Source of the DNA: Giardia intestinalis
Taxonomy: Eukaryota
Reading direction: 5' to 3' (one strand)
DNA length: 64,000 nt
NCBI GenBank assembly: GCA_000002435.2
Contig: CM018793.1
Shown here: piece after piece, positions 389-38,801 of the stretch
How positions within the stretch are numbered: the first letter of the stretch is position 1
Layout of the letters: each line of letters begins with the position of its first letter
Program-made: the position numbers and the translations under genes
Notes under the pieces: generated by a model
Told to the model about the DNA's origin: nothing
What the model saw: only the letters and a program-made list of their open reading frames with translations
The model's database searches: none

Positions 389-1165
389 CAGTCAAACGGA
401 AAGTGTGAGAAGACCAAGGAGGGGTACGGGATATCGCCCGATGGAAAGCTGCTGGAGTGCGACCCGACATGTCTGGGGTGCACTGCCCCTGGCCCCGGCC
501 GCTGCACCAGGTGCCCCTCTGACAAGCTCCTGAAGAAGGCCTCGGGTGCCGCCACCGGGAGCTGCGTCGACCCCGGCGCCTGTGTGGACGGGTACTACGC
601 ATACGGAGACGCGTGCCTGCCCTGCGCCACTCCGGGGTGCAAGACCTGCGGGCATACATCCTTCTGCACAGAGTGCGCGGAGGAGCTTTTCGTGAGCCTG
701 GACGGGCAGTCGTGCCTGGAGGAGTGCACCGGGGACAAGGTGGTGGGAGAGGTGTCCGGCGGCGTGCGGAGGTGCTGGTGCGAGCGGGGCTTCCTGCCGG
801 CGCTGGATAGATCCGGGTGTGTGTCCGCAGTCGAGTGTTCCTCTGGCATGCCGTTGTGTGCTGCCTGCGATGAGTCGGGTAGGTGCCTCTCGTGTGTCAC
901 TTCGGGCCACAACGTCCAAGTAGACCAGCGGACGTGTGCAGAAGGGTGCGGCGCCAGGGCCTCATCGAACCAGGGGGTGTGCATGTGTGAGATCGACGCA
1001 GTCCTCAGAAGGGCGTCTGCGTTCCAGCCAAGGAGCTGGTCAGGAAGAGGGCAGCGATCGCAGGGGGCAGCGGCCGGCTTTCTCGTTGTTGCTGCTTTGG
1101 CCGGCTTCCGCCGCTGGTGGCTCCTTTGTAGAGGAAAGGCGCATCAGTGCCCCATCAAACGCTAG
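389..1165 (+). pseudogene. VSP-like cysteine-rich surface protein, degenerate (likely pseudogene)
   Basis: The frame is open from the in-frame TAA at 386-388. It has many CXXC motifs (CLGCTAPGPGRCTRCPSDK, CLPCATPGCKTCGHTSFCTEC, GYYAYGDAC) and a TM-like AAAGFLVVAALAGF segment followed by CRGKA. There is no ATG or signal peptide; the first codon the ORF finder reports at 584 is GTG. CRGKA is followed by a 7-codon extension (HQCPIKR) instead of a stop. The TM segment is interrupted by RR. There is no AGTRAAY signal after the stop. Confidence 0.6.
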
Positions 1166-19700: not shown

Positions 19701-21753
19701 TATGGAGGTTTAAATCTCTAGATAAGGGAACACTGATGCTAGACAAGCTACAAGAATAGCGGTCCGAGTCATAAGACTCCGATAGAACAGATTGCTGACA
19801 CTCTGAAGCATTGCAGAAGTAGTTTGTATCTCCTAAAAAGGATGTTTCCTGATGTTGCTTGTTGTCATTACACAAGGTAGGGTGAATGTCATAATTATCA
19901 CAAAGGTCCCCAAGACAATCCATGTTTCCTAGTATACAATTAGAATCTTCACATAGCTCTGGATTATCAAAATTGAAGGAATCGTTGGACGTGTTGCTTA
20001 GACTAAAGCTACAAGCTTCCAAAGCATTATCCATGTGTTCTTCTACATCATATGCCGCTTCTAATAGCACATCTTCTAGTGCCACCTGAGCACTAGTGTG
20101 AGTTGTTTTTTTAGTACTTGAATGGGTGGGACTTGCTCGCTGAGGGAGACTATAAGCAGTAGTGGAGGGCTCTATATAGTCATCTATCCATGCAGTGGGG
20201 AAGAGGAACAGCTCAGGTTTTTCGGAATAAAATCTGTGGAGAGCATACTTCTCTATTGCCTTCTTCTGATATTCAGGGAAGCCGTGAAAAATAGCAAGTC
20301 GATAGGCCATTCCTGGAAGACAGCACGCAAGAGAGAATGAATCCATGTGCTCTGCCACGAACATCCGTCCAGAGTATGCATACAAGTTACTACTGGAGAT
20401 CATGGATACACCCTTAATGATACCCAACCCAACAAGAACAGAAGAAACAGATGTAGTGCCAGACTTTCCACAATGAAGCCTTAGGCCAGGGACATCAAGA
20501 GTATAAAGAGGATTATCTGTTGTGGCATAGAAGCCGTTATGTGCGAGTACTTGAAGAGTCTTAGAGGTCATATTTCCCGTAGCAATAAGTGGACTAAGAT
20601 ACTCAGAAGGTATGATCTGAAGACTAGAGAGAATATCACGATATGAGTATACGGTGGTATTCATCTCTTCCTCTTTTAGAATGGCCAATTGAGAAAAAAT
20701 AGGGTCTTCTACGCTATTATCCACTTTTGACAATGGGCTACTTAAGTAAAATTGCTGATACACTGAAAATTGGAGAGGATCGCAAAGAACTGTGTTAGGA
20801 CCTCCCAATGTTACACTAAAGACAGCAAGAGAGTTGTTAAACATAGGCTTGTGATATGTATAGAGTGAGGGGCCTATTGTGGACAGGGTAAAAGCTCCCA
20901 GAGAAGGGCTTTTGCTAGTGCACCAAATGTAATCTAAGAGTTTTTGGGAATAGAAGAGATTGGTGTCTGTGTAGGTTGAAGAATATTCCATAATCAAATT
21001 GCGAGACAAGAGCGTCATATCTATTGAAAGGCCATGCTCATTATAGTGGCCTGGGGATTTAAGTCCGAACTGTTGTTGCCACATGGAAAGTGATGATTGC
21101 TCCGAAAGAAATGAAGCGTACGCAAGCTTGATAGATAATTGAATAGCTGAAAGGTCAGTATTGAGAAGCTGTTGTAAAAAAGCTATGAGTAGAAATCGTT
21201 GTGAAGAAGGAAAACCATCATGATTAGTCGGGTAAAAACGAATTACTGCTAGTATAGTAGCTAGGGATATTTTCCTAGAAGATACTGCGCCTTGAACAAG
21301 TTGAAGCAGCATTTTTTCTGCTTGTAAAATAGATGAATTGCCATAGGAGTTCAACACTGCATATAGTAGAGCTCTGAGAAAAGGCATAAATTGGTTGGGT
21401 AAAAAAAGATCTGAATAGTGCGATAGAGTTGCTTGAGATGGCGACCTAGATACAGCCTTAAGATATTTGCAAGTAGTCTCTGTAGAGGTTGAGTGCCAGC
21501 GAGTATTATTACAAGGAATTAATCCAGTGCTCTGAATAAGTCCATCTTCTGTAAGTAGTAGCTGAGTATCGACAAAAGTAAGACCGTAGTTAGTAAGAAA
21601 TGGCTCTAGATGGGCCTCTCTATGATTGTTCTTCTTGACAGACAAAATGTCAAAGGGTTGAAAACCGCATATATGCTTAACAGAACCCACAAATTTGCTT
21701 GAGGCCACATTTGGCCATGATTCTAGTGAGTTCTCCGTTTTTTGATTTTGCAT
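13732..21753 (-). CDS. giant hypothetical protein (2673 aa) with internal K/R-rich region
   Basis: This is an uninterrupted 8-kb ORF. The ATG (reverse complement of CAT at 21751-21753) and the stop (CTA at 13732-13734) were verified. A basic stretch reads ...KRTKGIKRKNVDG...RKHRKVRRKK...KTRRRRRRRRHSHNN, which is NLS-like. I recognise no catalytic motif. Confidence 0.85.
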   Translation of the reverse strand: MQNQKTENSLESWPNVASSKFVGSVKHICGFQPFDILSVKKNNHREAHLEPFLTNYGLTFVDTQLLLTEDGLIQSTGLIPCNNTRWHSTSTETTCKYLKAVSRSPSQATLSHYSDLFLPNQFMPFLRALLYAVLNSYGNSSILQAEKMLLQLVQGAVSSRKISLATILAVIRFYPTNHDGFPSSQRFLLIAFLQQLLNTDLSAIQLSIKLAYASFLSEQSSLSMWQQQFGLKSPGHYNEHGLSIDMTLLSRNLIMEYSSTYTDTNLFYSQKLLDYIWCTSKSPSLGAFTLSTIGPSLYTYHKPMFNNSLAVFSVTLGGPNTVLCDPLQFSVYQQFYLSSPLSKVDNSVEDPIFSQLAILKEEEMNTTVYSYRDILSSLQIIPSEYLSPLIATGNMTSKTLQVLAHNGFYATTDNPLYTLDVPGLRLHCGKSGTTSVSSVLVGLGIIKGVSMISSSNLYAYSGRMFVAEHMDSFSLACCLPGMAYRLAIFHGFPEYQKKAIEKYALHRFYSEKPELFLFPTAWIDDYIEPSTTAYSLPQRASPTHSSTKKTTHTSAQVALEDVLLEAAYDVEEHMDNALEACSFSLSNTSNDSFNFDNPELCEDSNCILGNMDCLGDLCDNYDIHPTLCNDNKQHQETSFLGDTNYFCNASECQQSVLSESYDSDRYSCSLSSISVPLSRDLNLHNLQFLSAYRDSIDDLTKNPGFTEFYTKNMQRVAEAQKELYDDMLANELEEKSMYLTPPILKTQIYKTDTIPNVHLLTQCLTGRYSPAKRAAIFLVGPHGHTPCCFYGQRNRFLLVKNREKIYTREQSDSDNENFKQFIKQQQRQRAISHPLLSTPYAADPTITPTPINPLKNNDPKSSAIKKDTAQKVSNSSAPLDIQDTQQAPLFKTYWVLRELPTVALLGQMHPLPSFSMQLPTKKHIRRVQAVKFADYRSKIAAIRGDFDDSEAVRHVDKNLLKRVLDVSESDERSTSSASRNSVSEKGEEISQLDAEDQFELQDIDNSDSSMNTERVTASSRLQKKQTGKESATETSLSVGVYKKGAQYQCDTIPHVLSVWNIENFIRRRLLYMLDRLIDETPTDTCNRITFSELTSELSKKLFKVNFMKDVYKNIVFNSRYYAVNAKEANIKKLPLKSYSDPIEILMFENVLSTGGFVDNFLRKTSSETYLLQAVINDERPGSFLLDRFIGWSRLVISFYTDYRASYLQALRDMRFLLTYSHADVAGIRSFGSRQLKYGADTAGVEDLFREPCGSRDLLFKNRMHVFPYATNQKAGIASMLNNIYSVIASSLEGSTFYPMEKVYISPYSTIGLYARFIKLGESSFSEETAKLRVSDEKLKEYIDELSTLEPPMRLPNVVCHAKMAMLDKDQAPKKDTTIFQTLRVFGIAIHELLGFIDIISKTKNLLTLDRYMFSVLETGYPSEFLFRYRLFVIAKDHMKQNKKLSGKTKERLDNKQGLQDVQRSDQKDLKRTKGIKRKNVDGAEPELKKVSKTKSKKANLSGTEEHNAESPQPKVKRERSRSTMQLQSEKEKKEMPSIGEVSIRKHRKVRRKKSHELHAETQDTFASADLEKSDTEKKQEIKTRRRRRRRRHSHNNKNADLDVSTVNVAQDIADGADDETKELSVYPTASYIPVTAHFPASLTDSTQLYGYLTTENDFEEITEQSRVKRPASASLTPAKRDLAMDLLLYKEFFETAIDTLVQKYNYYLRTEEGSRVYAKIDPSEGQDDVTILDPVLRKKLAIHIHPFDVYTFCIEFQKSCAQNINPSKADPANSRLTLIKYVFHMIELLSRSCITQFLTVEQMYAMNAYQLNHIDRQYRERDLFLEVKMHKHIDFLEGRHNGIIDDDILKVLKEPSGRVLVASVFGDGQMRTIERHRIALGEIPCYLYTDSPFMSIQALGHSVIGGEIRGNYLNGLVRNKANGCKCIPDLNICRYSGSFNALTYEIDYLQKYLADPSGEKIGVTNNEDVFNAPQADLPLNDKYKELGGDFQRSLVMHTSASQDTPLLNSHVSTPSTSLPAYPYHVLYSITQEKKYYTNVELISRIERYKNIWTPAQNRAFLQLSLPMVQLTSTNRTGSILVFPHTSSKRIRSLAFLLSPATFLNGMGRSRDVLSKQRATKSNPGTDQDSTATKFQYIMSYPVENRTQVELIFDFWIRRRQILAYGNLVDGFFNRQHTQLTRESKTYPPTQLPELSPNHYSTSKDGIVVVHNISMTAAHYADYTRGNMNLALADALRESIQSHTHLFPLTSFFDKSSDKKASVRGRWIDILAAPSDSIQALQLKPLQSYFQITVSKDLKYKRQLCVIELVTKMSQSINLQLDANRGPIGSIQRKFYDLDDQPIFHLLECSVTDIYKDFLELANAFYCESIEVTLTTTKFNTYIFKDPLLLEAVSSSTAQDPYRRYTAANPIYYTTELFKDATDAALTRDDIHHATSEIQRELLYVLQYTSSIEACAYDCLLNFLHNLLDEESRNPKNQRIAQAFSCAQSLDRGSRRGDLARFMRDINNPLFVCDIYSTVSQMELRGDLPTEAFFYMIRSLYKLVVDCLQFYIPENSMVYGQVVATENALLNACTSAREATYGVFLPLMDLIASTREFFNRFWRRFSIMTAGYLYTKVSTLHVYGNTLHKHQIYSIVFLTMWQLEHLYCPLYRTLLTDDVVVASYHQRHAKSSKG

Positions 21754-21781: not shown

Positions 21782-24700
21782 TTACTCATCGGCCCCCGGG
21801 CGGCGCTCGGCCCGCATGCCGCTGTGACTCGGGACCGGGCAGCGACCAGGGAAAGCCTGGGGCCGACCGGGCGCCCCGAAGGCTCTGCTCTCCTGGCTTC
21901 CCCTTACCTGGAAGACAAGGAGTTAGTTTAGCACCTTTTCTGCTGCTAAGCTGCTCTGCCTCCTGCTAGAAGGAAGCGAGTGAGCCCTTGGGTATCCGGT
22001 AAGACTTCTGAGTAAACGAGGTAATGCTTCGGTGAGTGTACGTTAGTCGCATCGGCACAGAGCGCGTACTAATCAGACGAAGTCACATGTCTGCTAACTT
22101 CTATATAATATTCTAAAGCTATCCGGTCTCTGGGTGGCACCGCCAGGTATGTAGCGGGGCCCGTGGCCATTAAGACCCAGAAGGGCCTCCTCTCCTACTT
22201 GGCTCCGGAGTCAGTCCCAGTAGAGCATTGTTATGAGGCTGTTGTGCAGAGAGACACCGAATAGTTTGTACCGGTACACACCCCTTGTCCCCAGACGGCA
22301 CTCACCAGGGGTAGGCATTCGTAGAACCGCAGCATCGTGGGCTTGTGCACCGCTCACTGCCCACACACGTGTAGCTGCAGGCACACAAGCCAGTCGAGAG
22401 GCGCTCGCTTGCCAGAGATCCCTCACCACTGTTCAGAACACCGAACCGACGCTCCTGCCAGCGCGCCGCTCTTTGTAAGATACTCCAGAGAAGCTCAGGC
22501 CGTCGCTCAACAGCGTGCATGCCCGAGGCCTCTGTTTAGAGAACACTGCGCTAGCCTCTGCATGCCTTGAAGGCGCAGAAAAGAGGGTCTACCGATAGAG
22601 CCCTACACCATGTCCAGACATCCATGTTTTCAGAATCTTCGCGCAAGGATAAGAGGTAGAATGGGCAGAGCTCCACTGGCCTCGCGTCATGCAGATAGCG
22701 ATGCTATGCGTACCACATGATTGCATGCCACCGCACGAAGACAAGAGCCTGTATCAGCAGCCGACGGCATTTTACCAGTAGACCGAGGGACATTCCCACA
22801 CTGTACTCAGTCTCTCGCGTAACTTTCAAGCATGTTCGGTCGTGCTGGACGCTGCCTTTAGTTATATCTTGCTGAATAGCCAACGCAGTTGGCAGTGACC
22901 CCAAATATAGTGCGCCTTGCCTAATTCAGACTTCGGGATAGGCGTGTGGAAGACAAGCAGACGCATAGTATGGAGTACAGAGAGCCGTAGAGGCAGTTCT
23001 AAGTGCAGCATAGAGAAGCAGAGTGGGCTGTGGCCTCATGTGGTTAGAGGTATATGAGCGTATAGTCTTCTGTTCAGGACACATATCTTGGGAACCACTG
23101 CGTTGAGTCCTCTAGACCATCACTTGGAGGACGAACCGTCATGCAATGCAGGGCTGCATGCCAAAAGACACATGTCTGTCAGGAGAAGGTCGAAGGACAG
23201 ATCCACAGGCATTGCATGACTTGCTGGCATTCTTCTGTACAGAGCGTAATGCCTCGTGACAGGGAAGTCGTAGTTTTGTCACCAACCCTAATAGGGCTAA
23301 GGCATGGTCAGCGCGGAACTATGCATTCCTGCTGTGGTGCCCACAGAAGTGCTTGTCGAAGAAGATGCTTGCGCTCTCTGAGGGCACACACGAGGAGGAG
23401 CTGTGTAATGCGAAGAGCCTGGCACAGACCTTAAAGGGCTCAGGCTCGTGGTCATAAAAAGTCGCTCCTGCCCGTCTCCGCGGGTACTGCAGTTCTCGAT
23501 GGCGGATCATCGCGTCTTCTCCTTAACCGGCACGTTGGCAACCTGGTCTCTGGCGTAGGCACGCAGAGCATCGGGCCAGAAGCGCCGACTCGTTACCTCC
23601 TTTGCTCGGCCAAGTCCCGTGTTGGCCACAGAACACGCGTGTCTGCCCCCAGTGCGTAGCCGCTGAATCCTCAACAGAGGGACGTGTTCAGAAGTCTACG
23701 CTAACGCAGCCCACTGCAAGCAAAGTTCATCTGTCTCTCAGAGAAGAGGCGGCTGGGCCGTGTGTTGCGCATCAGGAGGCCTTTATGAAGGGCGCCCGCA
23801 CGTCTCGTCACACATGTGCGTCCGAGTGACAAGTAGCAGCCGGCGATACGGCCGCCCTCAGCTTCGCAGACACAGCGGGTGTGCTTACTGGTGTTCAAAG
23901 CAGTATGCCGTTGATCGTGGCATGCCTTTTCTCCAGGAGGGCTGGACGCCACTCGAATTGTGACTGTGTCCCATAGACGGGTGCTCTCCTTGTTACTCTG
24001 TAACACTCGTGCGCATCGGGACCGGCGATTCGCATCTGTGATCCAGACAGGAGCAGCGTCTTGTACTTCCGAGTAAGATGCAGCCGGCCCGCGAGCCTAC
24101 GTGCCGATCTATAGTCTATAACAAGCAAGCGGCAACCACTTGGCGTGCTACTCACGTGGACATTGCAGACTCTGCATCTGAATCGAGAGGCTTGACAGCG
24201 TACCGATTCCACGCTTGGCCGTCATAGGAGCCGGTTCCTTCTGCTTAGTAGCAAGCAGTCAGGCTTTACCGGTAGGAATGATTCGGTATAGTTGAGCGGC
24301 CCGAATAGACCCTAGCGACACCACGGCTTTCTGTTTATATTAAACGCCTTCGCTGTACTGGGGTCTCAGTGAGAAGACAAGCACAGATCCAGGCATGCAA
24401 GCCTTTAGAGATGCGTACTGCACGCAATTCCGGTGTGCTCGCCTGACGAGTCCTACTGCTCTAGCCGGCATACCGTTAGATCCTTCTGTACAGATTGAGC
24501 GAGCAGATATTAGCATACGGGTCACGTTAAGTATCTATGTTCAAGGCAGCTGCTGCTGAACGGGCACACCCAGAGCCACTGTCGCGTAAGATGCCAGCAA
24601 GATTCGCGGCCGCAGAGCACACTGTAATCTGGCGACTGATTTGGTCATGCCGCTCCTTTGTCCGCTGGAAACTCGGCTGGGCGCGGTAGAGAGCGCGTCG

Positions 24701-27700
24701 GGAGAACTCGATGGGAGAGGACTGGCAGGGCTTCCTGCGCCACGAGGGGAGCCACCGCAGGAGGACGCGCAGACACGCACGCCAGGCCACAGTAGACACG
24801 CGGACGCCCCTGTAGACTGGGCTGGCAGCAGGCGTCCGCAGAATCCGCGCCAGAGCCAGCTGCTCAAAAAACTGGGCAGCCTCTGGTCGTGTGCAGGCCT
24901 TGCAGAGCGCTGCGGCTCCCGACACTCGGCGACCCCTCTCAGAGCGGAAGACCCCGCGGGCCGCAGGCAGCAGCTCGTCGTCGGCGATGTCCCGAACGAA
25001 GGGGACGGCCCCAGCCTGCCCGCCTCCGTAGAGCTCTGGGCATCTGCAGACAAACCGGGGCTGCGCAGAGTGCGGCTCTCCCTGGCGGCCGAGGGCGGGG
25101 GTCCTCAGCAATACCAAAAAACTCCGATCAATACATCAGCCCCAGCGCCGCCGTGTGCAAAGCGGTCTGTTCTGTGTGGCGGCCTAAGCCAGCTCGTACT
25201 GCGGCGATGGCCCGGGTGAGGGCGCCCTGCTCGCCCGACGGACCGGGGCAGGCAGGCAACAAACACCCGCTAAAGCTTTTGTGCAAGGCCTGTACATATT
25301 TAATTTCACATTATTCGTTGGTCTGTTTTTAGTTTTATCGCCGCTTCTATCGGATGGGCTCTGGGGCAATGACGGCGGAGACGCGCGCCTCCGTTCTGCT
25401 CGAGCTCGCGAAGCAGGTCGTCGCTGCCCGGCGGCTGGGGGAGACGGCCGAGAGCCTCGCGCGGCGGCCGCTGCTCCTCCACCGGCACGTGCTCCGGACG
25501 GCCATCGACTGGAAGAAGATCGCCCGCGCCCTGTCCGAGGACCGGAGCAGGATCTATCACTGGTACCGCGAGACGCACTCGCGGAGCATCCTCAACGTGA
25601 AGATGACCGGCGAGGACCGCAGGGCCATCAAGGCGATGATCATCGCCGGGGTCAGGGACCGGAGCATCCTGGGCCCGGACTTCTACCGCAGGGTCCACGA
25701 GCGCTTCGGGGCGAAGTATCCGCGCCAGGAGCTGCGGATGACGTACAACAACGCGCTCCGCACCCAGGACGTCCGCGCCGCCCTGGAGGAGCACGGGGTG
25801 GTGCTGCCGCGCCGCACATACGGCCCGAGGGCGGCCAAGCAGGAGGAGGAGGTATCTCCTGTGACGGCCTCTCCCCCGCCCCCCTGCGTTCTTGGTTGCG
25901 CCGCGCCTCCGCTGGTGCCGCCCGTCGGGGGGCCGGTCTTTGTGGCCCCGGGCGCGGTCTCTGCGCTTCTGCCCCCGCACGCGCCGGGGTGCCTCGTCCT
26001 CGCCCTCCCGCCCGGGGTCGTTCCTGGGCCTGGCGTCCTCCCGCTCCAGACGGGCCAGGGTCTCCTCGGGTCGCCCGTTGCATTCGCATGCGTGCCATGC
26101 TTCCCCCCTGCGAGCTACGGAGGCGTGCCTGGGTGCGCTGATGCGAGCCCCAGTAAGGGTTGAGGACTGGAGACCCCGGCTTGCTTGGTGGTTGGCGAAG
26201 AGTGGTCGGTAGGAGCAGCTAATGGCCGGAGCCTGGTCAGTGACGAGACCGTCATGTCTAGAGCGTGCAGCATGCTCAACCACGGCACAGCGCAGGGCCC
26301 ACCAGACGCAGGCTACGACGGTCTGGATGTCGCGCAACCCGCATTCTGCGCATTGCTGAAGAGACCACATACAGCAGACGAAGGCAGGGCTCTTCCATGT
26401 GCCCAGACGACTCGAACACCGCGGTCTGGGCCAACGATCTACCAGACAGGCCCGTCCGGTAACAGGCGACTGAATGCTCTCTGGGCCGTGAGCTAGGACT
26501 GATGTGCAGCTGGCCGGCCACGACATTCACCCTGGCTGGCCCTCTGTCTTCACGCGCCGACACGCCAAGGAGCTGCAGGCCGGCTCTCGACACAGACTGA
26601 TGCTTGTCTCCTTGTTGGCAGGTCGTGAGTGGAAGAGTGGACGCGCTCTGTAAACGGCATACTCGATCCGCTCGTTCGGTGAAGCTTTTATCAAGAAGAG
26701 ATGCGATGATTGTCTCACCAGGCATACTATTGTCTGCGCACCTGTGCCTCAGATGCGGCCACCACGGCGCAGCTGCATCTCCGATCATCCTGGGCACACC
26801 TCCTGGCACGAGCAGGTGCGCCGGAAGGGATGCACTGCCCACCGCCGAGAAATGGATGAACTTCCTTACCCAGGAGCCGGCTGACCACTAGCCGTGCCCA
26901 GCAAACCCCAATAAGCAGGCCTGCTGAGCCAACCCATCCAAGAAGCTGTGTATCCGGAAGAGCTTCGCGTCGAATGGCTCCTTGATTAAAGAAGCTGGCA
27001 TCCAGCGCGGCATGACGACTATCCGCCTGGTGCTGATCTGTCTGCTGGGGAACACGCAGACGCCCTAAGCTCCGTGTGAGCCTATGTTCAAAGCGTCCTT
27101 CACTGGCAGGAGATTCAAGGAACTAGGCGTAGATAGGAAGAGCATTCCCCACTGGTGCCACGAAGTACCGGTATGCTACCTGGCTACACTAATGGCAGCG
27201 AAGAGCACGAGAAGGTCCCAGGGCCTCATCGAGCGGGTCTGCCCCTAGCAGGCCCAAGTAGACGCTCTCTCCAGCAGTGTACAAGAAGCCCGGGAGGGAA
27301 CGCTCGGGTCGGAGCTGGGGTGTTGCTGGTACAGGCTGTCCTTACTGAGTGCATCCCTCAGCGTCCAATAAGTGGAAAAGTGACCGGAGCTAGGTGTGCC
27401 TGCTTCTTCTCTGCCGCCTGCATGTTGTTGCATCTCTAGCTCTTCCTCATTTGTCGAGCGACTGCTCCTTCTGGCTTCTTGCTGGTCCTCGTTCGTCGTG
27501 TAGTCTCTTTTGGAGCTGCTCCCTGGAGGCCGAGCTGACCAGCAACATAGAGGAGCCTCATTCTTAGCTTCACACTCCACAACTGGCCCAGCGACATGTT
27601 GACCATTTTACAAGCAGTTCTGGGTCGCCCAGTCTGGGGCCGGCTGCTGTGCATTCTCTGCTTGACTGCCAGGGTCAGCGTCTGGCCCAGACACTAGATG

Positions 27701-29406
27701 GACAGGAGGCACGGACAAACGCCATTTGCTTGTTGCTTTCATGATCCACGAAGCTGCTGTCTTTATGTGAATCTCGACCCAGGTCGGTCTCCGTTGTAAG
27801 TGCAACGGTCTTGCGCATGCAATCTGGAGGATCTACGTTAGAGAATCGAGCCGAGCAATCCTTGTTAGCGCCTGCCATCCGACGTCTCTGTTGTTGAACT
27901 GGCCTGTAGAAGTCCGCTATAGGCCCTCAGACTCTTTGTCTGTGAGGTCCTTCATACTGGCCGGCCTGTCCTCGCAGAGCGCACTAAGTGCCCACCTATA
28001 ACGCATGTCGGCGGCAGACTCCTCGGGAGCAATTTGCGGGGGTCTCGATGGGGTGGCCGACGCCCAGTGAACGACTCCAAGCCACCCTTTAGTGTCTGCG
28101 CTGTCGCTCCACGAGAGTGCGTAGTGGGATGCAGCCGGAATCCCCGTGTGCGGGGGCCGACAGTCAACGGCAGAAAGTTCGGCACCCCGTGTTCCCACGA
28201 CGTCTCCGATCGCAGTACTGGCGGGGCCTGACGGCGCTTCTCTTCTTAATTCGGAACGAGTTAAGGAGTTTCCGCCGTAGGATGGCCGAACTGGCGGCTG
28301 AGGGAGCTGTGCGATGCGTCAGAGACTGTTAGAGATTCATATTGTGTATTGTGCAATGACCGATATGCATGGGTGTCCCACCGAAGACCCGGTGAAGGAT
28401 GGCACCGGAGATGAGACAGGATGACCCCTGGTGGAGGAGACCACGGTGCGGGCTTGCCTGCAGATGCCGTGACTAAAATCTCAGCCCGTCCAGGAGTTTA
28501 ACGGAGGTCATGCGACCGAATACCGAGGCCTACCGGAGAGCCGCATCGCCCCTGCACGAGCCAGCAAGCACTGCCTTCGACCCGACCACAGTTGAGAGCG
28601 CCCATGTCCGTGGATGCCGTCGGTCAGGTCCCTGAAGACCACCCTGCTCACAGCCCCAGGGATCCTCTGCAGACTCTGATTTCTATATCCCTGGGGTAGA
28701 TGTTTGCAGATAGCGGCACAGGGCTCAGCAAAACCGCCAGAAGATCCGCAGCACACTGTCATTAACCATGACGTCCTGTGGTATTCATTCCATGGCTAAG
28801 CCACCAATAATGGCACTGGAACTGGAGTAAGACACTTCTAGGGTGCGACTACAGGACCGTGGAGGAGCTTCCTTCCCACGAAGGAGACCCTGCAGCTAGG
28901 GCGTGGTCCATCAACTCTTAGCACTGCACACCTTGGTAGAAGCAGAGCCAAGCCCACACTTAGAAATCGATGGCTGCTCTGTTGGACCCCGCACACGATG
29001 CTAGCTATAGAAAAGAGCCCGGGCAAGGAGATCACGCGGACCAGGTGTACCCGGACTGAGAAGCGTCTACTTTATCAAGTAACGGTAACCGGTCTATGCA
29101 CACAGATCATGTTTGGCGACAAGCTCCCCTGTAGCTCATGTATACACTGCGAACCGCTGCTTAGAAGCCTGCGTTGGAGATGCTGCAAGACACCAATGGC
29201 TGAAAGGTGTGACTAGCCGTTCTTCCAGCTATCATCTCTCTGGATGCGCCGGGTACTTAAGGTGATAGTCCAGCATTGCACGCCTTGACTGCCACGGGCC
29301 TTGTGCATAGCCGACCAGGTGCCCGACACACGCCGCTTAGGAGTGCCCAGACCCCACGGTGCTGTAGTTGGGCTGCTAGGATGCGAGAGGTGGTGCACAG
29401 AGGCGC
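21782..29406. repeat. left arm of about 7.6-kb near-perfect inverted repeat (palindrome centre 30291.5)
   Basis: The reverse complement of 31177..38801 matches this arm. Outer-boundary bases were checked (21782-21792 TTACTCATCGG pairs with 38791-38801). At the inner boundary the first mismatch is at 29407. Every six-frame ORF in this arm has an exact mirror on the opposite strand, with about 10 single amino-acid differences in total across the paired ORFs I compared (e.g. 23760.. Q vs R; 25306.. K vs E; 26276.. E vs G). Confidence 0.95.
25354..26163 (+). CDS. possible Myb/SANT-like DNA-binding protein inside GC-rich island (left-arm copy); 3' half proline-rich low complexity
   Basis: An ATG at 25354 is immediately preceded by an AT-rich stretch (25281-25353, ...ttaatttcacattattcgttggtctgtttttagttttatc...) in otherwise roughly 70% GC DNA. 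Two Myb-repeat-like units are present: ...DWKKIARALSEDRSRIYHWYRETH and TGEDRRAIKAMIIAGVRDRSILGPDFYRRVHERFGAKYPRQELRMTYNNAL. All other frames are also open here because of the GC richness, so ORF length alone is weak evidence. Confidence 0.35.
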   Translation: MGSGAMTAETRASVLLELAKQVVAARRLGETAESLARRPLLLHRHVLRTAIDWKKIARALSEDRSRIYHWYRETHSRSILNVKMTGEDRRAIKAMIIAGVRDRSILGPDFYRRVHERFGAKYPRQELRMTYNNALRTQDVRAALEEHGVVLPRRTYGPRAAKQEEEVSPVTASPPPPCVLGCAAPPLVPPVGGPVFVAPGAVSALLPPHAPGCLVLALPPGVVPGPGVLPLQTGQGLLGSPVAFACVPCFPPASYGGVPGCADASPSKG

Positions 29407-30131
29407 ATATTAGAGTCAAGATCCATGTATTTCGCCTGCCCAGGTGGGCAGAAATGTTAGAGCGTCTAGACGGACTTAGTGCGTATCGCCCGAAAGTGAA
29501 GAAGCTGTTCGTGTAGGATCTGCATCGAACAGTCGCGTCACTGAGAGAGGAGGCTCATGTCTTCTTATGACCAAGGAGCCTAGCAACAACATTTACACAG
29601 CAATGCATACTATCGCAATGGACTTTCCTTGTGGGCAGTGTTAAAATGTTCATGTGCCATGTCGTGAGGCCATGTCACATTCTGCATCTCCTGCGCCAAC
29701 GTCATCGCTGCCTATTAGTGCAGAACCTGGCTATCTTGGAAGGCTTCCTCAAGTTCGTCTATACCTTTCTCGAAGAGGGTCCTTGGTAGTGGAGCCAGCT
29801 TTATGAGTGCTGTCCACCTCCTAGCAGAGCAAATTGACGGATGATGCACATGCGGGCTATACACTTTTCCGAAGCTTGTAGGGTACGGTGTTATGGTGGC
29901 TTTAACGATACACAAGCCATGCCCACCTGCAATAGATAGCCTCGATAGGATGCTCTTGAGTAGGGCACCAGTCAGCTGTCAGTCCTTGGGTACCGCAGAA
30001 AAGCACCAGTGCCTTCTTGTTCTGCACTGCAGCGTGCTCACAGCGACACGCTGAAGGATGCATGCGACCCGGTGGAGGCGGCTTCCACTGCTATCTGATC
30101 GCCCCTTAGTGTGAGCGTGATTCGGCGGGCA

Positions 30132-30947
30132 ATGTTGTACTTGGCAGGTTTAGCATTCGCTTACTTGGCGCTTGCCGATCCAAAATCGTGCACCAACTCT
30201 CAAAATTGTGCATCTGGAACTAACTGTCTAGATGTCAATATAAATGGCCAGCAAAAAGAGATTTGCACAAAATGCGAGGCCACCCACGTCCCGGTCGAGG
30301 GGGCGTGCCAGGCGAAGGACGGGCAGGACAAGTGCACGCCGCAGGACGCCCCCGACGGGACCTGCAAGGCGTGCCAGGGGAGCACCTACCTCTACAGCGG
30401 AGGATGCTACGCCGCGTGCCCCGACGGATTCTACGGAAAGGGCGACAACACATGTGCCAGCTGTGATAGCTCCTGTGACAAGTGCGAGGCCAAGACTCCC
30501 ACGAGCTCACGCTGTACGAAGTGCGCTGTCACCCACGTCCCGATCGACGGGGCCTGCGAGACCATAGCCGCCGCAGGGGCCAAGTGCACGGCCAAGAGCA
30601 CCCCCGACGGCACGTGCCAGTCGTGCAAGGGAGAGAACTATCTATACAGAGGCGGCTGTTATGTCTCGTGCCCTCAGGGAACACCAAACTCTGAGACTAA
30701 CACATGCGATGGAGTCCCCGCCCCTGATTGCAATCTTCCTAACTGCAAGTCATGTCCTGGCGGCACGTGCACAGAGTGTAACGACGGATTTGTTCTAGGT
30801 GATGATAAAAATTGCGTGCCTTCTAGCGTCAACAAGAGCGGGCTCTCCACTGGCGCCATAGCGGGCATCGCCGTGGCCGCTATTATTGTCGTCGGGGGTC
30901 TCGTCGGTTTCCTCTGCTGGTGGTTTATCTGCAGGGGGAAGGCATAA
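30132..30947 (+). CDS. variant-specific surface protein (VSP), small, complete
   Basis: The ATG at 30132 gives the signal peptide MLYLAGLAFAYLALA. The ORF's nominal start at 30111 is GTG. The protein has many CXXC/CxC motifs (KCEATHVPVEGAC, CKACQGSTYLYSGGCY, GGCYVSCPQG). The C-terminus is the canonical TM plus tail, GAIAGIAVAAIIVVGGLVGFLCWWFICRGKA, followed by a stop. AGTAAAC lies at 30956-30962. Confidence 0.9.
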   Translation: MLYLAGLAFAYLALADPKSCTNSQNCASGTNCLDVNINGQQKEICTKCEATHVPVEGACQAKDGQDKCTPQDAPDGTCKACQGSTYLYSGGCYAACPDGFYGKGDNTCASCDSSCDKCEAKTPTSSRCTKCAVTHVPIDGACETIAAAGAKCTAKSTPDGTCQSCKGENYLYRGGCYVSCPQGTPNSETNTCDGVPAPDCNLPNCKSCPGGTCTECNDGFVLGDDKNCVPSSVNKSGLSTGAIAGIAVAAIIVVGGLVGFLCWWFICRGKA

Positions 30948-30955
30948 ATTTAGGT

Positions 30956-30962
30956 AGTAAAC
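30956..30962 (+). promoter_or_regulatory. AGTAAAC polyadenylation signal 9 nt after the VSP stop
   Basis: Read directly from the sequence. Confidence 0.6.
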
Positions 30963-31176
30963 GTGTCTCCTATTACACCCACTTACTCCATAGTTTCGAC
31001 GCCGCTATTCTACGAGGTCGCTGAGTTACCTGTCTCCGAGCATCCACTGGATTCTGTGGCAGGACCGCGCCTCCATGTTTTGCCGTGCCCGCTTCTGTAT
31101 GGCAATGAGCACCCCCTACTATTGTACAACTATTCCACCCAGAGGCAGGCGACACACAGACCCTTGGCTCTGATAG

Positions 31177-34100
31177 GCGCCTCTGTGCACCACCTCTCGC
31201 ATCCTAGCAGCCCAACTACAGCACCGTGGGGTCTGGGCACTCCTAAGCGGCGTGTGTCGGGCACCTGGTCGGCTATGCACAAGGCCCGTGGCAGTCAAGG
31301 CGTGCAATGCTGGACTATCACCTTAAGTACCCGGCGCATCCAGAGAGATGATAGCTGGAAGAACGGCTAGTCACACCTTTCAGCCATTGGTGTCTTGCAG
31401 CATCTCCAACGCAGGCTTCTAAGCAGCGGTTCGCAGTGTATACATGAGCTACAGGGGAGCTTGTCGCCAAACATGATCTGTGTGCATAGACCGGTTACCG
31501 TTACTTGATAAAGTAGACGCTTCTCAGTCCGGGTACACCTGGTCCGCGTGATCTCCTTGCCCGGGCTCTTTTCTATAGCTAGCATCGTGTGCGGGGTCCA
31601 ACAGAGCAGCCATCGATTTCTAAGTGTGGGCTTGGCTCTGCTTCTACCAAGGTGTGCAGTGCTAAGAGTTGATGGACCACGCCCTAGCTGCAGGGTCTCC
31701 TTCGTGGGAAGGAAGCTCCTCCACGGTCCTGTAGTCGCACCCTAGAAGTGTCTTACTCCAGTTCCAGTGCCATTATTGGTGGCTTAGCCATGGAATGAAT
31801 ACCACAGGACGTCATGGTTAATGACAGTGTGCTGCGGATCTTCTGGCGGTTTTGCTGAGCCCTGTGCCGCTATCTGCAAACATCTACCCCAGGGATATAG
31901 AAATCAGAGTCTGCAGAGGATCCCTGGGGCTGTGAGCAGGGTGGTCTTCAGGGACCTGACCGACGGCATCCACGGACATGGGCGCTCTCAACTGTGGTCG
32001 GGTCGAAGGCAGTGCTTGCTGGCTCGTGCAGGGGCGATGCGGCTCTCCGGTAGGCCTCGGTATTCGGTCGCATGACCTCCGTTAAACTCCTGGACGGGCT
32101 GAGATTTTAGTCACGGCATCTGCAGGCAAGCCCGCACCGTGGTCTCCTCCACCAGGGGTCATCCTGTCTCATCTCCGGTGCCATCCTTCACCGGGTCTTC
32201 GGTGGGACACCCATGCATATCGGTCATTGCACAATACACAATATGAATCTCTAACAGTCTCTGACGCATCGCACAGCTCCCTCAGCCGCCAGTTCGGCCA
32301 TCCTACGGCGGAAACTCCTTAACTCGTTCCGAATTAAGAAGAGAAGCGCCGTCAGGCCCCGCCAGTACTGCGATCGGAGACGTCGTGGGAACACGGGGTG
32401 CCGAACTTTCTGCCGTTGACTGTCGGCCCCCGCACACGGGGATTCCGGCTGCATCCCACTACGCACTCTCGTGGAGCGACAGCGCAGACACTAAAGGGTG
32501 GCTTGGAGTCGTTCACTGGGCGTCGGCCACCCCATCGAGACCCCCGCAAATTGCTCCCGAGGAGTCTGCCGCCGACATGCGTTATAGGTGGGCACTTAGT
32601 GCGCTCTGCGAGGACAGGCCGGCCAGTATGAAGGACCTCACAGACAAAGAGTCTGAGGGCCTATAGCGGACTTCTACAGGCCAGTTCAACAACAGAGACG
32701 TCGGATGGCAGGCGCTAACAAGGATTGCTCGGCTCGATTCTCTAACGTAGATCCTCCAGATTGCATGCGCAAGACCGTTGCACTTACAACGGAGACCGAC
32801 CTGGGTCGAGATTCACATAAAGACAGCAGCTTCGTGGATCATGAAAGCAACAAGCAAATGGCGTTTGTCCGTGCCTCCTGTCCATCTAGTGTCTGGGCCA
32901 GACGCTGACCCTGGCAGTCAAGCAGAGAATGCACAGCAGCCGGCCCCAGACTGGGCGACCCAGAACTGCTTGTAAAATGGTCAACATGTCGCTGGGCCAG
33001 TTGTGGAGTGTGAAGCTAAGAATGAGGCTCCTCTATGTTGCTGGTCAGCTCGGCCTCCAGGGAGCAGCTCCAAAAGAGACTACACGACGAACGAGGACCA
33101 GCAAGAAGCCAGAAGGAGCAGTCGCTCGACAAATGAGGAAGAGCTAGAGATGCAACAACATGCAGGCGGCAGAGAAGAAGCAGGCACACCTAGCTCCGGT
33201 CACTTTTCCACTTATTGGACGCTGAGGGATGCACTCAGTAAGGACAGCCTGTACCAGCAACACCCCAGCTCCGACCCGAGCGTTCCCTCCCGGGCTTCTT
33301 GTACACTGCTGGAGAGAGCGTCTACTTGGGCCTGCTAGGGGCAGACCCGCTCGATGAGGCCCTGGGACCTTCTCGTGCTCTTCGCTGCCATTAGTGTAGC
33401 CAGGTAGCATACCGGTACTTCGTGGCACCAGTGGGGAATGCTCTTCCTATCTACGCCTAGTTCCTTGAATCTCCTGCCAGTGAAGGACGCTTTGAACATA
33501 GGCTCACACGGAGCTTAGGGCGTCTGCGTGTTCCCCAGCAGACAGATCAGCACCAGGCGGATAGTCGTCATGCCGCGCTGGATGCCAGCTTCTTTAATCA
33601 AGGAGCCATTCGACGCGAAGCTCTTCCGGATACACAGCTTCTTGGATGGGTTGGCTCAGCAGGCCTGCTTATTGGGGTTTGCTGGGCACGGCTAGTGGTC
33701 AGCCGGCTCCTGGGTAAGGAAGTTCATCCATTTCTCGGCGGTGGGCAGTGCATCCCTTCCGGCGCACCTGCTCGTGCCAGGAGGTGTGCCCAGGATGATC
33801 GGAGATGCAGCTGCGCCGTGGTGGCCGCATCTGAGGCACAGGTGCGCAGACAATAGTATGCCTGGTGAGACAATCATCGCATCTCTTCTTGATAAAAGCT
33901 TCACCGAACGAGCGGATCGAGTATGCCGTTTACAGAGCGCGTCCACTCTTCCACTCACGACCTGCCAACAAGGAGACAAGCATCAGTCTGTGTCGAGAGC
34001 CGGCCTGCAGCTCCTTGGCGTGTCGGCGCGTGAAGACAGAGGGCCAGCCAGGGTGAATGTCGTGGCCGGCCAGCTGCACATCAGTCCTAGCTCACGGCCC

Positions 34101-37100
34101 AGAGAGCATTCAGTCGCCTGTTACCGGACGGGCCTGTCTGGTAGATCGTTGGCCCAGACCGCGGTGTTCGAGTCGTCTGGGCACATGGGAGAGCCCTGCC
34201 TTCGTCTGCTGTATGTGGTCTCTTCAGCAATGCGCAGAATGCGGGTTGCGCGACATCCAGACCGTCGTAGCCTGCGTCTGGTGGGCCCTGCGCTGTGCCG
34301 TGGTTGAGCATGCTGCACGCTCTAGACATGACGGTCTCGTCACTGACCAGGCTCCGGCCATTAGCTGCTCCTACCGACCACTCTTCGCCAACCACCAAGC
34401 AAGCCGGGGTCTCCAGTCCTCAACCCTTACTGGGGCTCGCATCAGCGCACCCAGGCACGCCTCCGTAGCTCGCAGGGGGGAAGCATGGCACGCATGCGAA
34501 TGCAACGGGCGACCCGAGGAGACCCTGGCCCGTCTGGAGCGGGAGGACGCCAGGCCCAGGAACGACCCCGGGCGGGAGGGCGAGGACGAGGCACCCCGGC
34601 GCGTGCGGGGGCAGAAGCGCAGAGACCGCGCCCGGGGCCACAAAGACCGGCCCCCCGACGGGCGGCACCAGCGGAGGCGCGGCGCAACCAAGAACGCAGG
34701 GGGGCGGGGGAGAGGCCGTCACAGGAGATACCTCCTCCTCCTGCTTGGCCGCCCTCGGGCCGTATGTGCGGCGCGGCAGCACCACCCCGTGCTCCTCCAG
34801 GGCGGCGCGGACGTCCTGGGTGCGGAGCGCGTTGTTGTACGTCATCCGCAGCTCCTGGCGCGGATACTTCGCCCCGAAGCGCTCGTGGACCCTGCGGTAG
34901 AAGTCCGGGCCCAGGATGCTCCGGTCCCTGACCCCGGCGATGATCATCGCCTTGATGGCCCTGCGGTCCTCGCCGGTCATCTTCACGTTGAGGATGCTCC
35001 GCGAGTGCGTCTCGCGGTACCAGTGATAGATCCTGCTCCGGTCCTCGGACAGGGCGCGGGCGATCTTCTTCCAGTCGATGGCCGTCCGGAGCACGTGCCG
35101 GTGGAGGAGCAGCGGCCGCCGCGCGAGGCTCTCGGCCGTCTCCCCCAGCCGCCGGGCAGCGACGACCTGCTTCGCGAGCTCGAGCAGAACGGAGGCGCGC
35201 GTCTCCGCCGTCATTGCCCCAGAGCCCATCCGATAGAAGCGGCGATAAAACTAAAAACAGACCAACGAATAATGTGAAATTAAATATGTACAGGCCTTGC
35301 ACAAAAGCTTTAGCGGGTGTTTGTTGCCTGCCTGCCCCGGTCCGTCGGGCGAGCAGGGCGCCCTCACCCGGGCCATCGCCGCAGTACGAGCTGGCTTAGG
35401 CCGCCACACAGAACAGACCGCTTTGCACACGGCGGCGCTGGGGCTGATGTATTGATCGGAGTTTTTTGGTATTGCTGAGGACCCCCGCCCTCGGCCGCCA
35501 GGGAGAGCCGCACTCTGCGCAGCCCCGGTTTGTCTGCAGATGCCCAGAGCTCTACGGAGGCGGGCAGGCTGGGGCCGTCCCCTTCGTTCGGGACATCGCC
35601 GACGACGAGCTGCTGCCTGCGGCCCGCGGGGTCTTCCGCTCTGAGAGGGGTCGCCGAGTGTCGGGAGCCGCAGCGCTCTGCAAGGCCTGCACACGACCAG
35701 AGGCTGCCCAGTTTTTTGAGCAGCTGGCTCTGGCGCGGATTCTGCGGACGCCTGCTGCCAGCCCAGTCTACAGGGGCGTCCGCGTGTCTACTGTGGCCTG
35801 GCGTGCGTGTCTGCGCGTCCTCCTGCGGTGGCTCCCCTCGTGGCGCAGGAAGCCCTGCCAGTCCTCTCCCATCGAGTTCTCCCGACGCGCTCTCTACCGC
35901 GCCCAGCCGAGTTTCCAGCGGACAAAGGAGCGGCATGACCAAATCAGTCGCCAGATTACAGTGTGCTCTGCGGCCGCGAATCTTGCTGGCATCTTACGCG
36001 ACAGTGGCTCTGGGTGTGCCCGTTCAGCAGCAGCTGCCTTGAACATAGATACTTAACGTGACCCGTATGCTAATATCTGCTCGCTCAATCTGTACAGAAG
36101 GATCTAACGGTATGCCGGCTAGAGCAGTAGGACTCGTCAGGCGAGCACACCGGAATTGCGTGCAGTACGCATCTCTAAAGGCTTGCATGCCTGGATCTGT
36201 GCTTGTCTTCTCACTGAGACCCCAGTACAGCGAAGGCGTTTAATATAAACAGAAAGCCGTGGTGTCGCTAGGGTCTATTCGGGCCGCTCAACTATACCGA
36301 ATCATTCCTACCGGTAAAGCCTGACTGCTTGCTACTAAGCAGAAGGAACCGGCTCCTATGACGGCCAAGCGTGGAATCGGTACGCTGTCAAGCCTCTCGA
36401 TTCAGATGCAGAGTCTGCAATGTCCACGTGAGTAGCACGCCAAGTGGTTGCCGCTTGCTTGTTATAGACTATAGATCGGCACGTAGGCTCGCGGGCCGGC
36501 TGCATCTTACTCGGAAGTACAAGACGCTGCTCCTGTCTGGATCACAGATGCGAATCGCCGGTCCCGATGCGCACGAGTGTTACAGAGTAACAAGGAGAGC
36601 ACCCGTCTATGGGACACAGTCACAATTCGAGTGGCGTCCAGCCCTCCTGGAGAAAAGGCATGCCACGATCAACGGCATACTGCTTTGAACACCAGTAAGC
36701 ACACCCGCTGTGTCTGCGAAGCCGAGGGCGGCCGTATCGCCGGCTGCTACTTGTCACTCGGACGCACATGTGTGACGAGACGTGCGGGCGCCCTTCATAA
36801 AGGCCTCCTGATGCGCAACACACGGCCCAGCCGCCTCTTCTCTGAGAGACAGATGAACTTTGCTTGCAGTGGGCTGCGTTAGCGTAGACTTCTGAACACG
36901 TCCCTCTGTTGAGGATTCAGCGGCTACGCACTGGGGGCAGACACGCGTGTTCTGTGGCCAACACGGGACTTGGCCGAGCAAAGGAGGTAACGAGTCGGCG
37001 CTTCTGGCCCGATGCTCTGCGTGCCTACGCCAGAGACCAGGTTGCCAACGTGCCGGTTAAGGAGAAGACGCGATGATCCGCCATCGAGAACTGCAGTACC

Positions 37101-38801
37101 CGCGGAGACGGGCAGGAGCGACTTTTTATGACCACGAGCCTGAGCCCTTTAAGGTCTGTGCCAGGCTCTTCGCATTACACAGCTCCTCCTCGTGTGTGCC
37201 CTCAGAGAGCGCAAGCATCTTCTTCGACAAGCACTTCTGTGGGCACCACAGCAGGAATGCATAGTTCCGCGCTGACCATGCCTTAGCCCTATTAGGGTTG
37301 GTGACAAAACTACGACTTCCCTGTCACGAGGCATTACGCTCTGTACAGAAGAATGCCAGCAAGTCATGCAATGCCTGTGGATCTGTCCTTCGACCTTCTC
37401 CTGACAGACATGTGTCTTTTGGCATGCAGCCCTGCATTGCATGACGGTTCGTCCTCCAAGTGATGGTCTAGAGGACTCAACGCAGTGGTTCCCAAGATAT
37501 GTGTCCTGAACAGAAGACTATACGCTCATATACCTCTAACCACATGAGGCCACAGCCCACTCTGCTTCTCTATGCTGCACTTAGAACTGCCTCTACGGCT
37601 CTCTGTACTCCATACTATGCGTCTGCTTGTCTTCCACACGCCTATCCCGAAGTCTGAATTAGGCAAGGCGCACTATATTTGGGGTCACTGCCAACTGCGT
37701 TGGCTATTCAGCAAGATATAACTAAAGGCAGCGTCCAGCACGACCGAACATGCTTGAAAGTTACGCGAGAGACTGAGTACAGTGTGGGAATGTCCCTCGG
37801 TCTACTGGTAAAATGCCGTCGGCTGCTGATACAGGCTCTTGTCTTCGTGCGGTGGCATGCAATCATGTGGTACGCATAGCATCGCTATCTGCATGACGCG
37901 AGGCCAGTGGAGCTCTGCCCATTCTACCTCTTATCCTTGCGCGAAGATTCTGAAAACATGGATGTCTGGACATGGTGTAGGGCTCTATCGGTAGACCCTC
38001 TTTTCTGCGCCTTCAAGGCATGCAGAGGCTAGCGCAGTGTTCTCTAAACAGAGGCCTCGGGCATGCACGCTGTTGAGCGACGGCCTGAGCTTCTCTGGAG
38101 TATCTTACAAAGAGCGGCGCGCTGGCAGGAGCGTCGGTTCGGTGTTCTGAACAGTGGTGAGGGATCTCTGGCAAGCGAGCGCCTCTCGACTGGCTTGTGT
38201 GCCTGCAGCTACACGTGTGTGGGCAGTGAGCGGTGCACAAGCCCACGATGCTGCGGTTCTACGAATGCCTACCCCTGGTGAGTGCCGTCTGGGGACAAGG
38301 GGTGTGTACCGGTACAAACTATTCGGTGTCTCTCTGCACAACAGCCTCATAACAATGCTCTACTGGGACTGACTCCGGAGCCAAGTAGGAGAGGAGGCCC
38401 TTCTGGGTCTTAATGGCCACGGGCCCCGCTACATACCTGGCGGTGCCACCCAGAGACCGGATAGCTTTAGAATATTATATAGAAGTTAGCAGACATGTGA
38501 CTTCGTCTGATTAGTACGCGCTCTGTGCCGATGCGACTAACGTACACTCACCGAAGCATTACCTCGTTTACTCAGAAGTCTTACCGGATACCCAAGGGCT
38601 CACTCGCTTCCTTCTAGCAGGAGGCAGAGCAGCTTAGCAGCAGAAAAGGTGCTAAACTAACTCCTTGTCTTCCAGGTAAGGGGAAGCCAGGAGAGCAGAG
38701 CCTTCGGGGCGCCCGGTCGGCCCCAGGCTTTCCCTGGTCGCTGCCCGGTCCCGAGTCACAGCGGCATGCGGGCCGAGCGCCGCCCGGGGGCCGATGAGTA
38801 A
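31177..38801. repeat. right arm of the inverted repeat
   Basis: Same evidence as the left arm. An example single-nucleotide mismatch between arms is 23860 (A) versus 36723 (C, where G was expected). Confidence 0.95.
34420..35229 (-). CDS. right-arm mirror copy of the possible Myb/SANT-like ORF
   Basis: Its 269-aa translation is identical to that of 25354..26163. Confidence 0.35.
   Translation of the reverse strand: MGSGAMTAETRASVLLELAKQVVAARRLGETAESLARRPLLLHRHVLRTAIDWKKIARALSEDRSRIYHWYRETHSRSILNVKMTGEDRRAIKAMIIAGVRDRSILGPDFYRRVHERFGAKYPRQELRMTYNNALRTQDVRAALEEHGVVLPRRTYGPRAAKQEEEVSPVTASPPPPCVLGCAAPPLVPPVGGPVFVAPGAVSALLPPHAPGCLVLALPPGVVPGPGVLPLQTGQGLLGSPVAFACVPCFPPASYGGVPGCADASPSKG

Follow-up and report, generated by a model that had tools for sequence, protein, structure and literature searches.

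The locus

The window analysed here is a stretch of 64,000 nucleotides (nt) of Giardia intestinalis DNA (contig CM018793.1, assembly GCA_000002435.2), which holds a palindrome whose two arms each carry a GC-rich island with a gene for a hypothetical protein of 269 amino acids (aa). The arms (21782-29420 and 31163-38801, 7,639 nt each) are 100% complementary and are separated by a spacer of 1,742 nt (29421-31162), mirror coordinates being obtained as 60583 minus x. The features on which the discussion below depends are listed by position, with the strand where one applies and the basis of each in brackets.

21782..29420, left arm of the perfect inverted repeat, carrying the island (arm alignment)
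24530..26600, GC-rich island, 66% GC (composition)
24591..25283, GC-rich (~66%) upstream block, duplicated together with the gene, probably non-coding (locus comparison, frame loss, Pfam)
25284..25353, + strand, AT-rich patch directly upstream of the ATG, putative minimal promoter or initiator (composition, conservation)
25354..25818, + strand, conserved basic N-terminal domain, residues 1-155, predicted to form nine helices with two Myb/SANT-like modules, 39-80 and 86-135 (alignment, structure prediction)
25819..26163, + strand, disordered Pro/Gly/Ala-rich tail, residues 156-269 and stop codon, varying between copies (alignment, structure prediction)
26540..27040, conserved block downstream of the gene, shared by other family loci, apparently non-coding (locus comparison)
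31163..38801, right arm of the inverted repeat (arm alignment)
33983..36053, mirror GC-rich island (composition and arm complementarity)
34420..35229, - strand, right-arm mirror of the 269-aa gene (arm complementarity)
35230..35299, - strand, mirror AT-rich patch (arms 100% complementary)

The island has a GC content of 66.3% (63-72% in 500-nt windows), its immediate surroundings 50-60% and the palindrome arms as a whole 58.9%, whereas the unique DNA outside the palindrome has 44.9% (1-21781) and 46.9% (38802-64000). Since the arms are already enriched in GC and only the outer unique DNA lies at 45-47%, the island is a peak within a GC-rich repeat and not within DNA of 45% GC. A first-pass annotation, made from the letters of this stretch, had set the island against surroundings of about 45%; its GC-richness stands, with peaks of 72%, while the contrast is true only for the DNA outside the palindrome.

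A genuine gene within the island

The open reading frame (ORF) at 25354..26163 on the + strand encodes 269 aa and has its mirror at 34420..35229 on the - strand, so that the start codon, the length and the mirror coordinates previously assigned are all correct. The translation of 25354-26163 is identical to the hypothetical protein GL50803_00137682 of Giardia duodenalis WB, encoded on a 4.0-Mb contig. The GC content at third codon positions (GC3) is 0.85-0.98 in the frame of the ORF only, and amounts to 0.96 over the first 150 codons. The length of the ORF is by itself uninformative, because other frames of the same GC-rich DNA hold overlapping ORFs as well (286 aa on the + strand, 406 aa on the - strand); it is the frame-specific GC3, together with the conserved homologues and the exact match to GL50803_00137682, which validates the reading frame. 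The 406-aa antisense ORF was also considered as a gene and was rejected, since its first codon position would then be the GC-rich one, unlike the pattern of coding DNA. Judged from its sequence, the 269-aa ORF is a genuine gene, annotated only as a hypothetical protein. The island holds several overlapping ORFs (150-400 aa) in its other frames, which would favour an ORF open by chance in DNA so rich in GC, or a pseudogene; nevertheless, the confinement of the high GC3 to a single frame, residues which are invariant even across paralogues of 33-45% identity, homologues throughout the diplomonads and a confident structure prediction leave this reading with practically no probability, and the conservation can already be taken as effectively refuting it.

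The AT-rich patch of 70 nt directly before the ATG has 37% GC (32% for 25290-25345) as against 69% on either side, as its earlier description implied. Furthermore, assemblages A and E agree in ~95% of the 110 nt upstream of the ATG, the patch included, and assemblage B retains conserved blocks of it, which supports the proposal of a discrete gene with its own AT-rich upstream patch. Giardia promoters are short AT-rich initiators, and the conserved patch appears to fit a promoter of this kind, from which the gene would be transcribed.

The upstream block is probably non-coding, because in assemblage E the frame of its ORFs is broken and Pfam has no match for them; on the same grounds, and in view of its indels, the upstream ORF at 24527-25117 (-) was rejected as a second gene. 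Other isolates preserve the ORF-free stretch 23046-25353 ahead of a syntenic copy of the gene (95% identity in DH, ~74% in P15). On the other side, the downstream block of ~500 nt (26540-27040) is present at all the family loci examined (L001, 11850-12310; L005, 11240-11760; L004, 11150-11520), and also 3' of a 40%-identical paralogue. As its indels are not multiples of three it looks non-coding, candidates for its nature being a conserved 3' element, an RNA and a gene-conversion mosaic.

A diplomonad-wide protein family

A word-indexed search returned 20 relatives of the protein, those with a name being all from Giardia and all annotated as hypothetical, while a profile search of 1.84 billion representative sequences returned 79 proteins at E<=1e-3, 37 of them at E<=1e-10. 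The named members come from G. duodenalis assemblages A, B and E, G. muris (GMRT_12412), Spironucleus salmonicida (SS50377_22962), Hexamita inflata and Trepomonas sp. PC1, and a lone marsupial match near the cut-off (E 5.7e-5) looks spurious. Each genome holds several paralogue lineages, all of them annotated as hypothetical. The gene family is diplomonad-wide and uncharacterised, and it is old and vertically inherited within the diplomonads, which contradicts the foreign origin that the first-pass annotation had offered as one explanation of the island.

When the relatives are aligned, a conserved N-terminal region of ~150 residues with 35 invariant positions is followed by an indel-rich, poorly conserved tail. 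The start methionine is conserved across paralogues, and the invariant residues include W53, RxRxxHWYRET (64-74), KMTxxDR (83-89) and ELRMTYNN (126-133). The N-terminal domain is basic (isoelectric point 11.1; 31 K+R versus 17 D+E) and the tail is composed of 23% Pro, 14% Gly and 13% Ala. Longer members of the family, of up to 926 aa, contain no other Pfam domain. A short motif near the C-terminus (residues ~243-252; ~26080-26110) is kept across paralogue lineages as ..[AT]Y[VIL]P with hydrophobic residues; it reads AFACVPCF in the window copy and can be written more briefly as ..A[YC]VP...

The constraint on the domain is also visible at the nucleotide level. Between assemblages A and E, 132 of the 150 N-terminal codons are identical, the remainder showing 9 synonymous and 9 non-synonymous changes, and so small a number of synonymous changes means that synonymous sites are unusually constrained. 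In fact, nucleotide identity between 25316-25816 and the corresponding P15 locus (L006) is 90-99% per 100 nt in the N-terminal coding region, as against 61-81% in the flanks. Among the six distinct paralogue sequences of WB there are 4 variable sites in the domain and ~20 in the tail.

Predicted fold of the N-terminal domain

AlphaFold2, run with the family alignment, gave a predicted local distance difference test score (pLDDT) above 85 for residues 4-154 and disorder from residue 155 on, and a domain-only run with 46 sequences reached a mean pLDDT of 94.1 and a predicted template-modelling score of 0.80. Helices were predicted at residues 8-26, 32-36, 39-47, 53-60, 64-80, 86-102, 110-118, 124-135 and 138-146, and the N-terminal domain is confidently predicted to be all-helical, with two Myb/SANT-like (homeodomain-like) three-helix modules. 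In structural comparisons these modules matched Myb/SANT domains best: the tandem-Myb proteins SNAPC4 and Trichomonas vaginalis Myb3 aligned over 102-104 residues, while TRF1, Reb1, the SANT domain of Bdp1, MTA1 and CoREST ranked lower. The predicted model contains what defines the Myb/SANT fold, that is, a three-helix bundle of ~50 residues with a helix-turn-helix (HTH), superimposable on solved repeats. Other three-helix HTH folds trail only slightly (Tc3 transposase 6.8, homeodomains 6.1), and for this reason the safe label is that of the homeodomain-like superfamily, closest to Myb/SANT.

The sequence itself gives fainter signs of the same relationship. W53 is invariant and W70 is at least 90% conserved, the position of the first Myb tryptophan being taken by Leu42, while the second module has M84, Y111/F118 and Y131 at the tryptophan positions and no tryptophans. 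In hhalign comparisons with nine single Myb repeats, entered by hand, residues 40-67 were placed on Myb helices 1-2 (a weak match, P 0.004), and in global mode W53 and W70 fell on the second and third Myb tryptophans; against a four-sequence R2R3 alignment, likewise entered by hand, the probability was 4.6%. The domain of the window protein and its more distant relatives (46 sequences) gave sub-threshold Pfam matches to HTH_23 in 9 (best 6.7e-4), to Myb_DNA-bind_8 in 5 (best E 0.017) and to Myb_DNA-bind_6 in 1, and in the members individually inspected the HTH and Myb matches map to the first module.

Several results weigh against the Myb/SANT assignment. In the Pfam search just described no match reached the threshold, the window protein has no family match at E<=1 to 10, and its 18 close relatives have no family at threshold; the test that the first-pass annotation had itself set, a match to a Pfam Myb/SANT hidden Markov model (HMM), was therefore negative for the protein and these relatives. 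The sequence search of the PDB with two family profiles gave insignificant matches only (Oskar LOTUS, E 0.09; ASCC3), and Foldseek, given the full-length model or that of the domain alone, found nothing in the PDB at E<1, meaning that the nine-helix arrangement is without a close solved counterpart. Moreover, the comparison of module 1 with module 2 as internal repeats detected no similarity. Of the two Myb-repeat-like units proposed earlier, then, what stands is their placement, the quoted segments sitting on the two predicted modules in the register proposed, while a family HMM match is lacking.

The comparison with known systems is consistent with this mixed picture. Like the Myb/SANT repeats of c-Myb R2R3, the plant R2R3-MYB WER, Cdc5/Cef1, SNAPC4 and Trichomonas Myb3, the predicted domain has two consecutive three-helix modules of ~45-50 residues, W-x2-IA at the start of helix 2 and the aromatic W70 in helix 3, in W2/W3 register, and a basic surface. 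Unlike them, it goes unmatched by the Pfam Myb/SANT models, has Leu42 for the first tryptophan and Met, Tyr/Phe and Tyr for those of module 2, shows a W-to-W spacing of 17 instead of 18-19, and includes additional helices, a pair at the N-terminal end (8-36) and one at the C-terminal end (138-146), in one rigid domain of 150 residues. The characterised Myb proteins of Giardia, such as the encystation factor gMyb2 (Myb1-like), have tandem Myb-type modules, are found by standard Myb HMMs and are single-copy, whereas the present family is missed by such HMMs, is annotated as hypothetical and includes one amplified GC-rich subfamily.

Copies of the gene and the duplicated unit

The gene is amplified in WB. 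A cluster at 90% identity comprises at least seven annotated, near-identical genes with six distinct sequences (GL50803_0061066, 00137682, 00d60974/0060974, 00103981, 00114778 and 00112150, on contigs of 1.5, 2.0, 2.8 and 4.0 Mb), to which the palindrome adds the mirror copy. The proteins of GL50803_00d60974 and GL50803_0060974 are identical and their accessions, KAE8302586.1 and KAE8302588.1, lie two apart, a spacing suggestive of another copy-gene-copy arrangement of the kind seen in the palindrome.

Copies in other isolates delimit what has been duplicated. In another assemblage-A isolate, a block of 1,990 bp (24591-26579, 94.6% identity) adjoins RING-finger and annexin genes, the DNA on its left being unrelated. 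At a kinesin-adjacent locus of isolate DH (A2) the common block extends over 23046-26125 (95% identity), and this locus is syntenic between DH and P15 (assemblage E), so that this copy must be old and stable. In GS (assemblage B), a gene for a variant-specific surface protein (VSP) precedes a copy by 1.7 kb. Sequence comparison of these loci indicates that the island is one copy of a duplicated unit of ~2-2.4 kb built around GL50803_00137682.

A mobile element had also been suggested for the island, and the unit could in principle be a DNA transposon remnant or a novel element, with an HTH protein derived from, or similar to, the DNA-binding domain of a Tc1/mariner transposase. This is in keeping with the at least seven dispersed, near-identical copies, with the appearance of the 1,990-bp block in a wholly different flank and with ends nearly matching those of the island, and with the weak HTH_23 matches in the relatives. 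The likeness to the bipartite HTH of Tc1/mariner proteins (Tc3, HTH_23-type) lies in the N-terminal tandem HTH modules, these weak matches and the multicopy gene; the Giardia protein differs in having a Pro-rich tail and neither a catalytic domain nor terminal inverted repeats, and some of its loci are syntenic across assemblages. In fact, every hallmark tested is missing. No terminal inverted or direct repeats flank the duplicated unit; Pfam found no transposase, reverse transcriptase (RT) or integrase domain among the ten longest ORFs of the arm, two of which lie inside the island, and no RVT match; no DDE, RT or integrase domain occurs in the window protein or its longer relatives; and the RT-bearing segment of locus L001 shows no similarity to the arm in blastn or tblastx. 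The missing RVT match in those ten ORFs and the comparison with the L001 segment also speak against the Giardia non-LTR retrotransposons GilM, GilT and GilD. The ends of the block differ from locus to locus, as seen at the kinesin locus and elsewhere, the kinesin-adjacent copy has stayed in place between A2 and E, and single-copy paralogues exist throughout the diplomonads. A mobile origin is consequently improbable. Segmental duplication, by contrast, fits the locus-dependent ends, the lack of flanking repeats and the lack of transposase or RT in the arm, which transposition does not. Segmental duplications have been reported to make up 6.9% of the WB genome and often to involve gene families (PMC7000408). 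The gene would occur in both arms simply because the 17-kb VSP-centred palindrome, itself a segmental duplication, captured one copy.

The alternative of an rDNA-like block is likewise contradicted, given that the rRNA gene models of Rfam, even at E<=1, matched no small-subunit, 5.8S or large-subunit rRNA and found only 5S genes, which lie outside the island. There is one such gene per arm (28174-28293, -; 32290-32409, +; 88 bits), and these two belong to the ten 5S genes reported for WB (PMC7000408). A link of the family to 5S rRNA genes was considered and rejected, as no 5S gene occurs at five other family loci.

Origin of the high GC content

Close copies of the gene are GC-rich in assemblages A, E and B (0.62-0.80 in 250-nt windows), with GC3 values of 0.96, 0.95 and 0.87, respectively, while the 40%-identical single-copy paralogue DHA2_153000 (GL50803_10241) has 47-53% GC and a GC3 of 0.67. 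The non-coding DNA on both sides of the gene also has about 63-69% GC, which argues against codon selection alone. Furthermore, 25864-27030 resembles DNA that lies 3' of a distant paralogue, forming mosaic blocks common to different paralogue loci, and in the mosaic block two DH loci are nearly identical in spite of genes that are only ~40% identical; such similarity is consistent with sequence exchange. We infer that the high GC was produced by GC-biased gene conversion among dispersed copies and not by a foreign origin. Against this it must be said that the extreme GC3 could also stem from codon selection.

The palindrome and its surroundings

The spacer of the palindrome contains a single VSP gene, an ORF of 278 aa at 30111-30947 (+) (Pfam VSP, E 2.8e-28), the coding sequence of which includes an internal direct repeat of ~145 nt (30281-30421 and 30530-30673, 75% identity). 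The palindrome, of 17 kb in total, is flanked by a gene of 2,673 aa, whose start codon is at 21753, and by a gene for a DHHC palmitoyltransferase (38963), and short-read assemblies of other isolates stop 40-230 nt inside the arm edge upstream of the DHHC gene. On either side of the island, at 21782-24530 and 26600-29420, coding density is very low for Giardia; outside the Myb-like gene and the 5S gene the arms hold no ORF with a Pfam match, no VSP remnant and no Rfam match. A weak, VSP-like Cys-rich similarity to the palindrome VSP is found at 578-1141 (+) (29% over 199 aa, E 3e-4).

Function and relation to VSP genes

Taken together, the best explanation is that of a native, multicopy Giardia gene for a tandem Myb/SANT-like nucleic-acid-binding protein, which became GC-rich through conversion and was caught in the palindrome; a probability of roughly 65% may be assigned to it. 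The protein would be a nuclear nucleic-acid-binding factor, most likely a DNA-binding one, in which recognition would fall to the invariant third helices of the two modules (RxRIYHWYRETHxR and ELRMTYNN), and an interaction or effector role to the Pro-rich tail.

A point to be set against DNA binding is that histones, proteins or RNA, and not DNA, can be the ligands of SANT and Cdc5-type Myb domains. The predicted fold might thus be right and the protein still be a SANT/Cdc5-like module which binds chromatin proteins, histone tails or RNA, with no sequence-specific DNA binding. The replacement of the first canonical Myb tryptophan by Leu42 and a second module without tryptophans speak for such a module, while contact with nucleic acid agrees with the isoelectric point of 11.1 and with the Arg, His and Asn residues that are invariant on the two third helices. 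Histone-binding SANT domains, in addition, are typically acidic. On balance this reading is unlikely, even if it is the most serious of the competitors to a DNA-binding Myb/SANT-like protein.

The first-pass annotation had seen in the gene a natural candidate regulator of VSPs, and a VSP gene or fragment does lie within 4 kb at three of the four independent loci. A gene devoted to regulating the neighbouring VSP or VSP switching, and carried within palindromes that bear VSPs, would agree with the VSP ORF in the spacer, the VSP 1.7 kb upstream of the assemblage-B copy and the 3' end of a VSP 3 kb downstream of another assemblage-A copy. Nevertheless, no VSP was called within 10 kb of the syntenic kinesin-locus copy in A2 and E, and the family, with its members in Spironucleus, Hexamita and Trepomonas, predates the VSP-bearing Giardia lineages; to our knowledge, VSP-based antigenic variation has not been described in diplomonad genera other than Giardia. 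VSPs, moreover, generally cluster in duplicated, plastic regions (PMC7000408), and their proximity may only reflect co-duplication in such regions. A role as dedicated VSP regulator is consequently very improbable. Only slightly less speculative is the wider proposal that the diplomonad tandem-HTH family represents a major lineage-specific class of DNA-binding regulators, and that its amplified, GC-homogenised subfamily, found repeatedly next to VSP genes and within perfect palindromes, may have a part in the control of VSP loci or in promoting the duplications and inversions by which they are reshuffled.

Regarding expression, the paralogue GL50803_38275 is transcribed at ~52 fragments per kilobase of transcript per million mapped reads in WB and at 99-145 in P15 and GS (PMC3610916), and GL50803_10241 at ~0.4-3.5 (PMC4807828). 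For the window copy and its near-identical paralogues, searches of the literature and supplements by gene ID found no expression data, which counts against the explanation preferred here.

Implications

The amplified subfamily offers a natural example of a multicopy Giardia sequence turning GC-rich, with a GC3 of 0.96 as against 0.67 in the single-copy paralogue, and this bears on how compositional islands in Giardia are to be read, since the island at this locus would reflect repeat homogenisation and not foreign DNA. Giardia, in turn, has very few recognised transcription factors, and the control of VSP expression and of stage conversion is still debated. In this context, a diplomonad-restricted family with a predicted tandem Myb/SANT-like domain would provide candidate factors that standard domain searches miss, and the gene described here is of moderate interest mainly as a member of such a candidate lineage-specific DNA-binding family.

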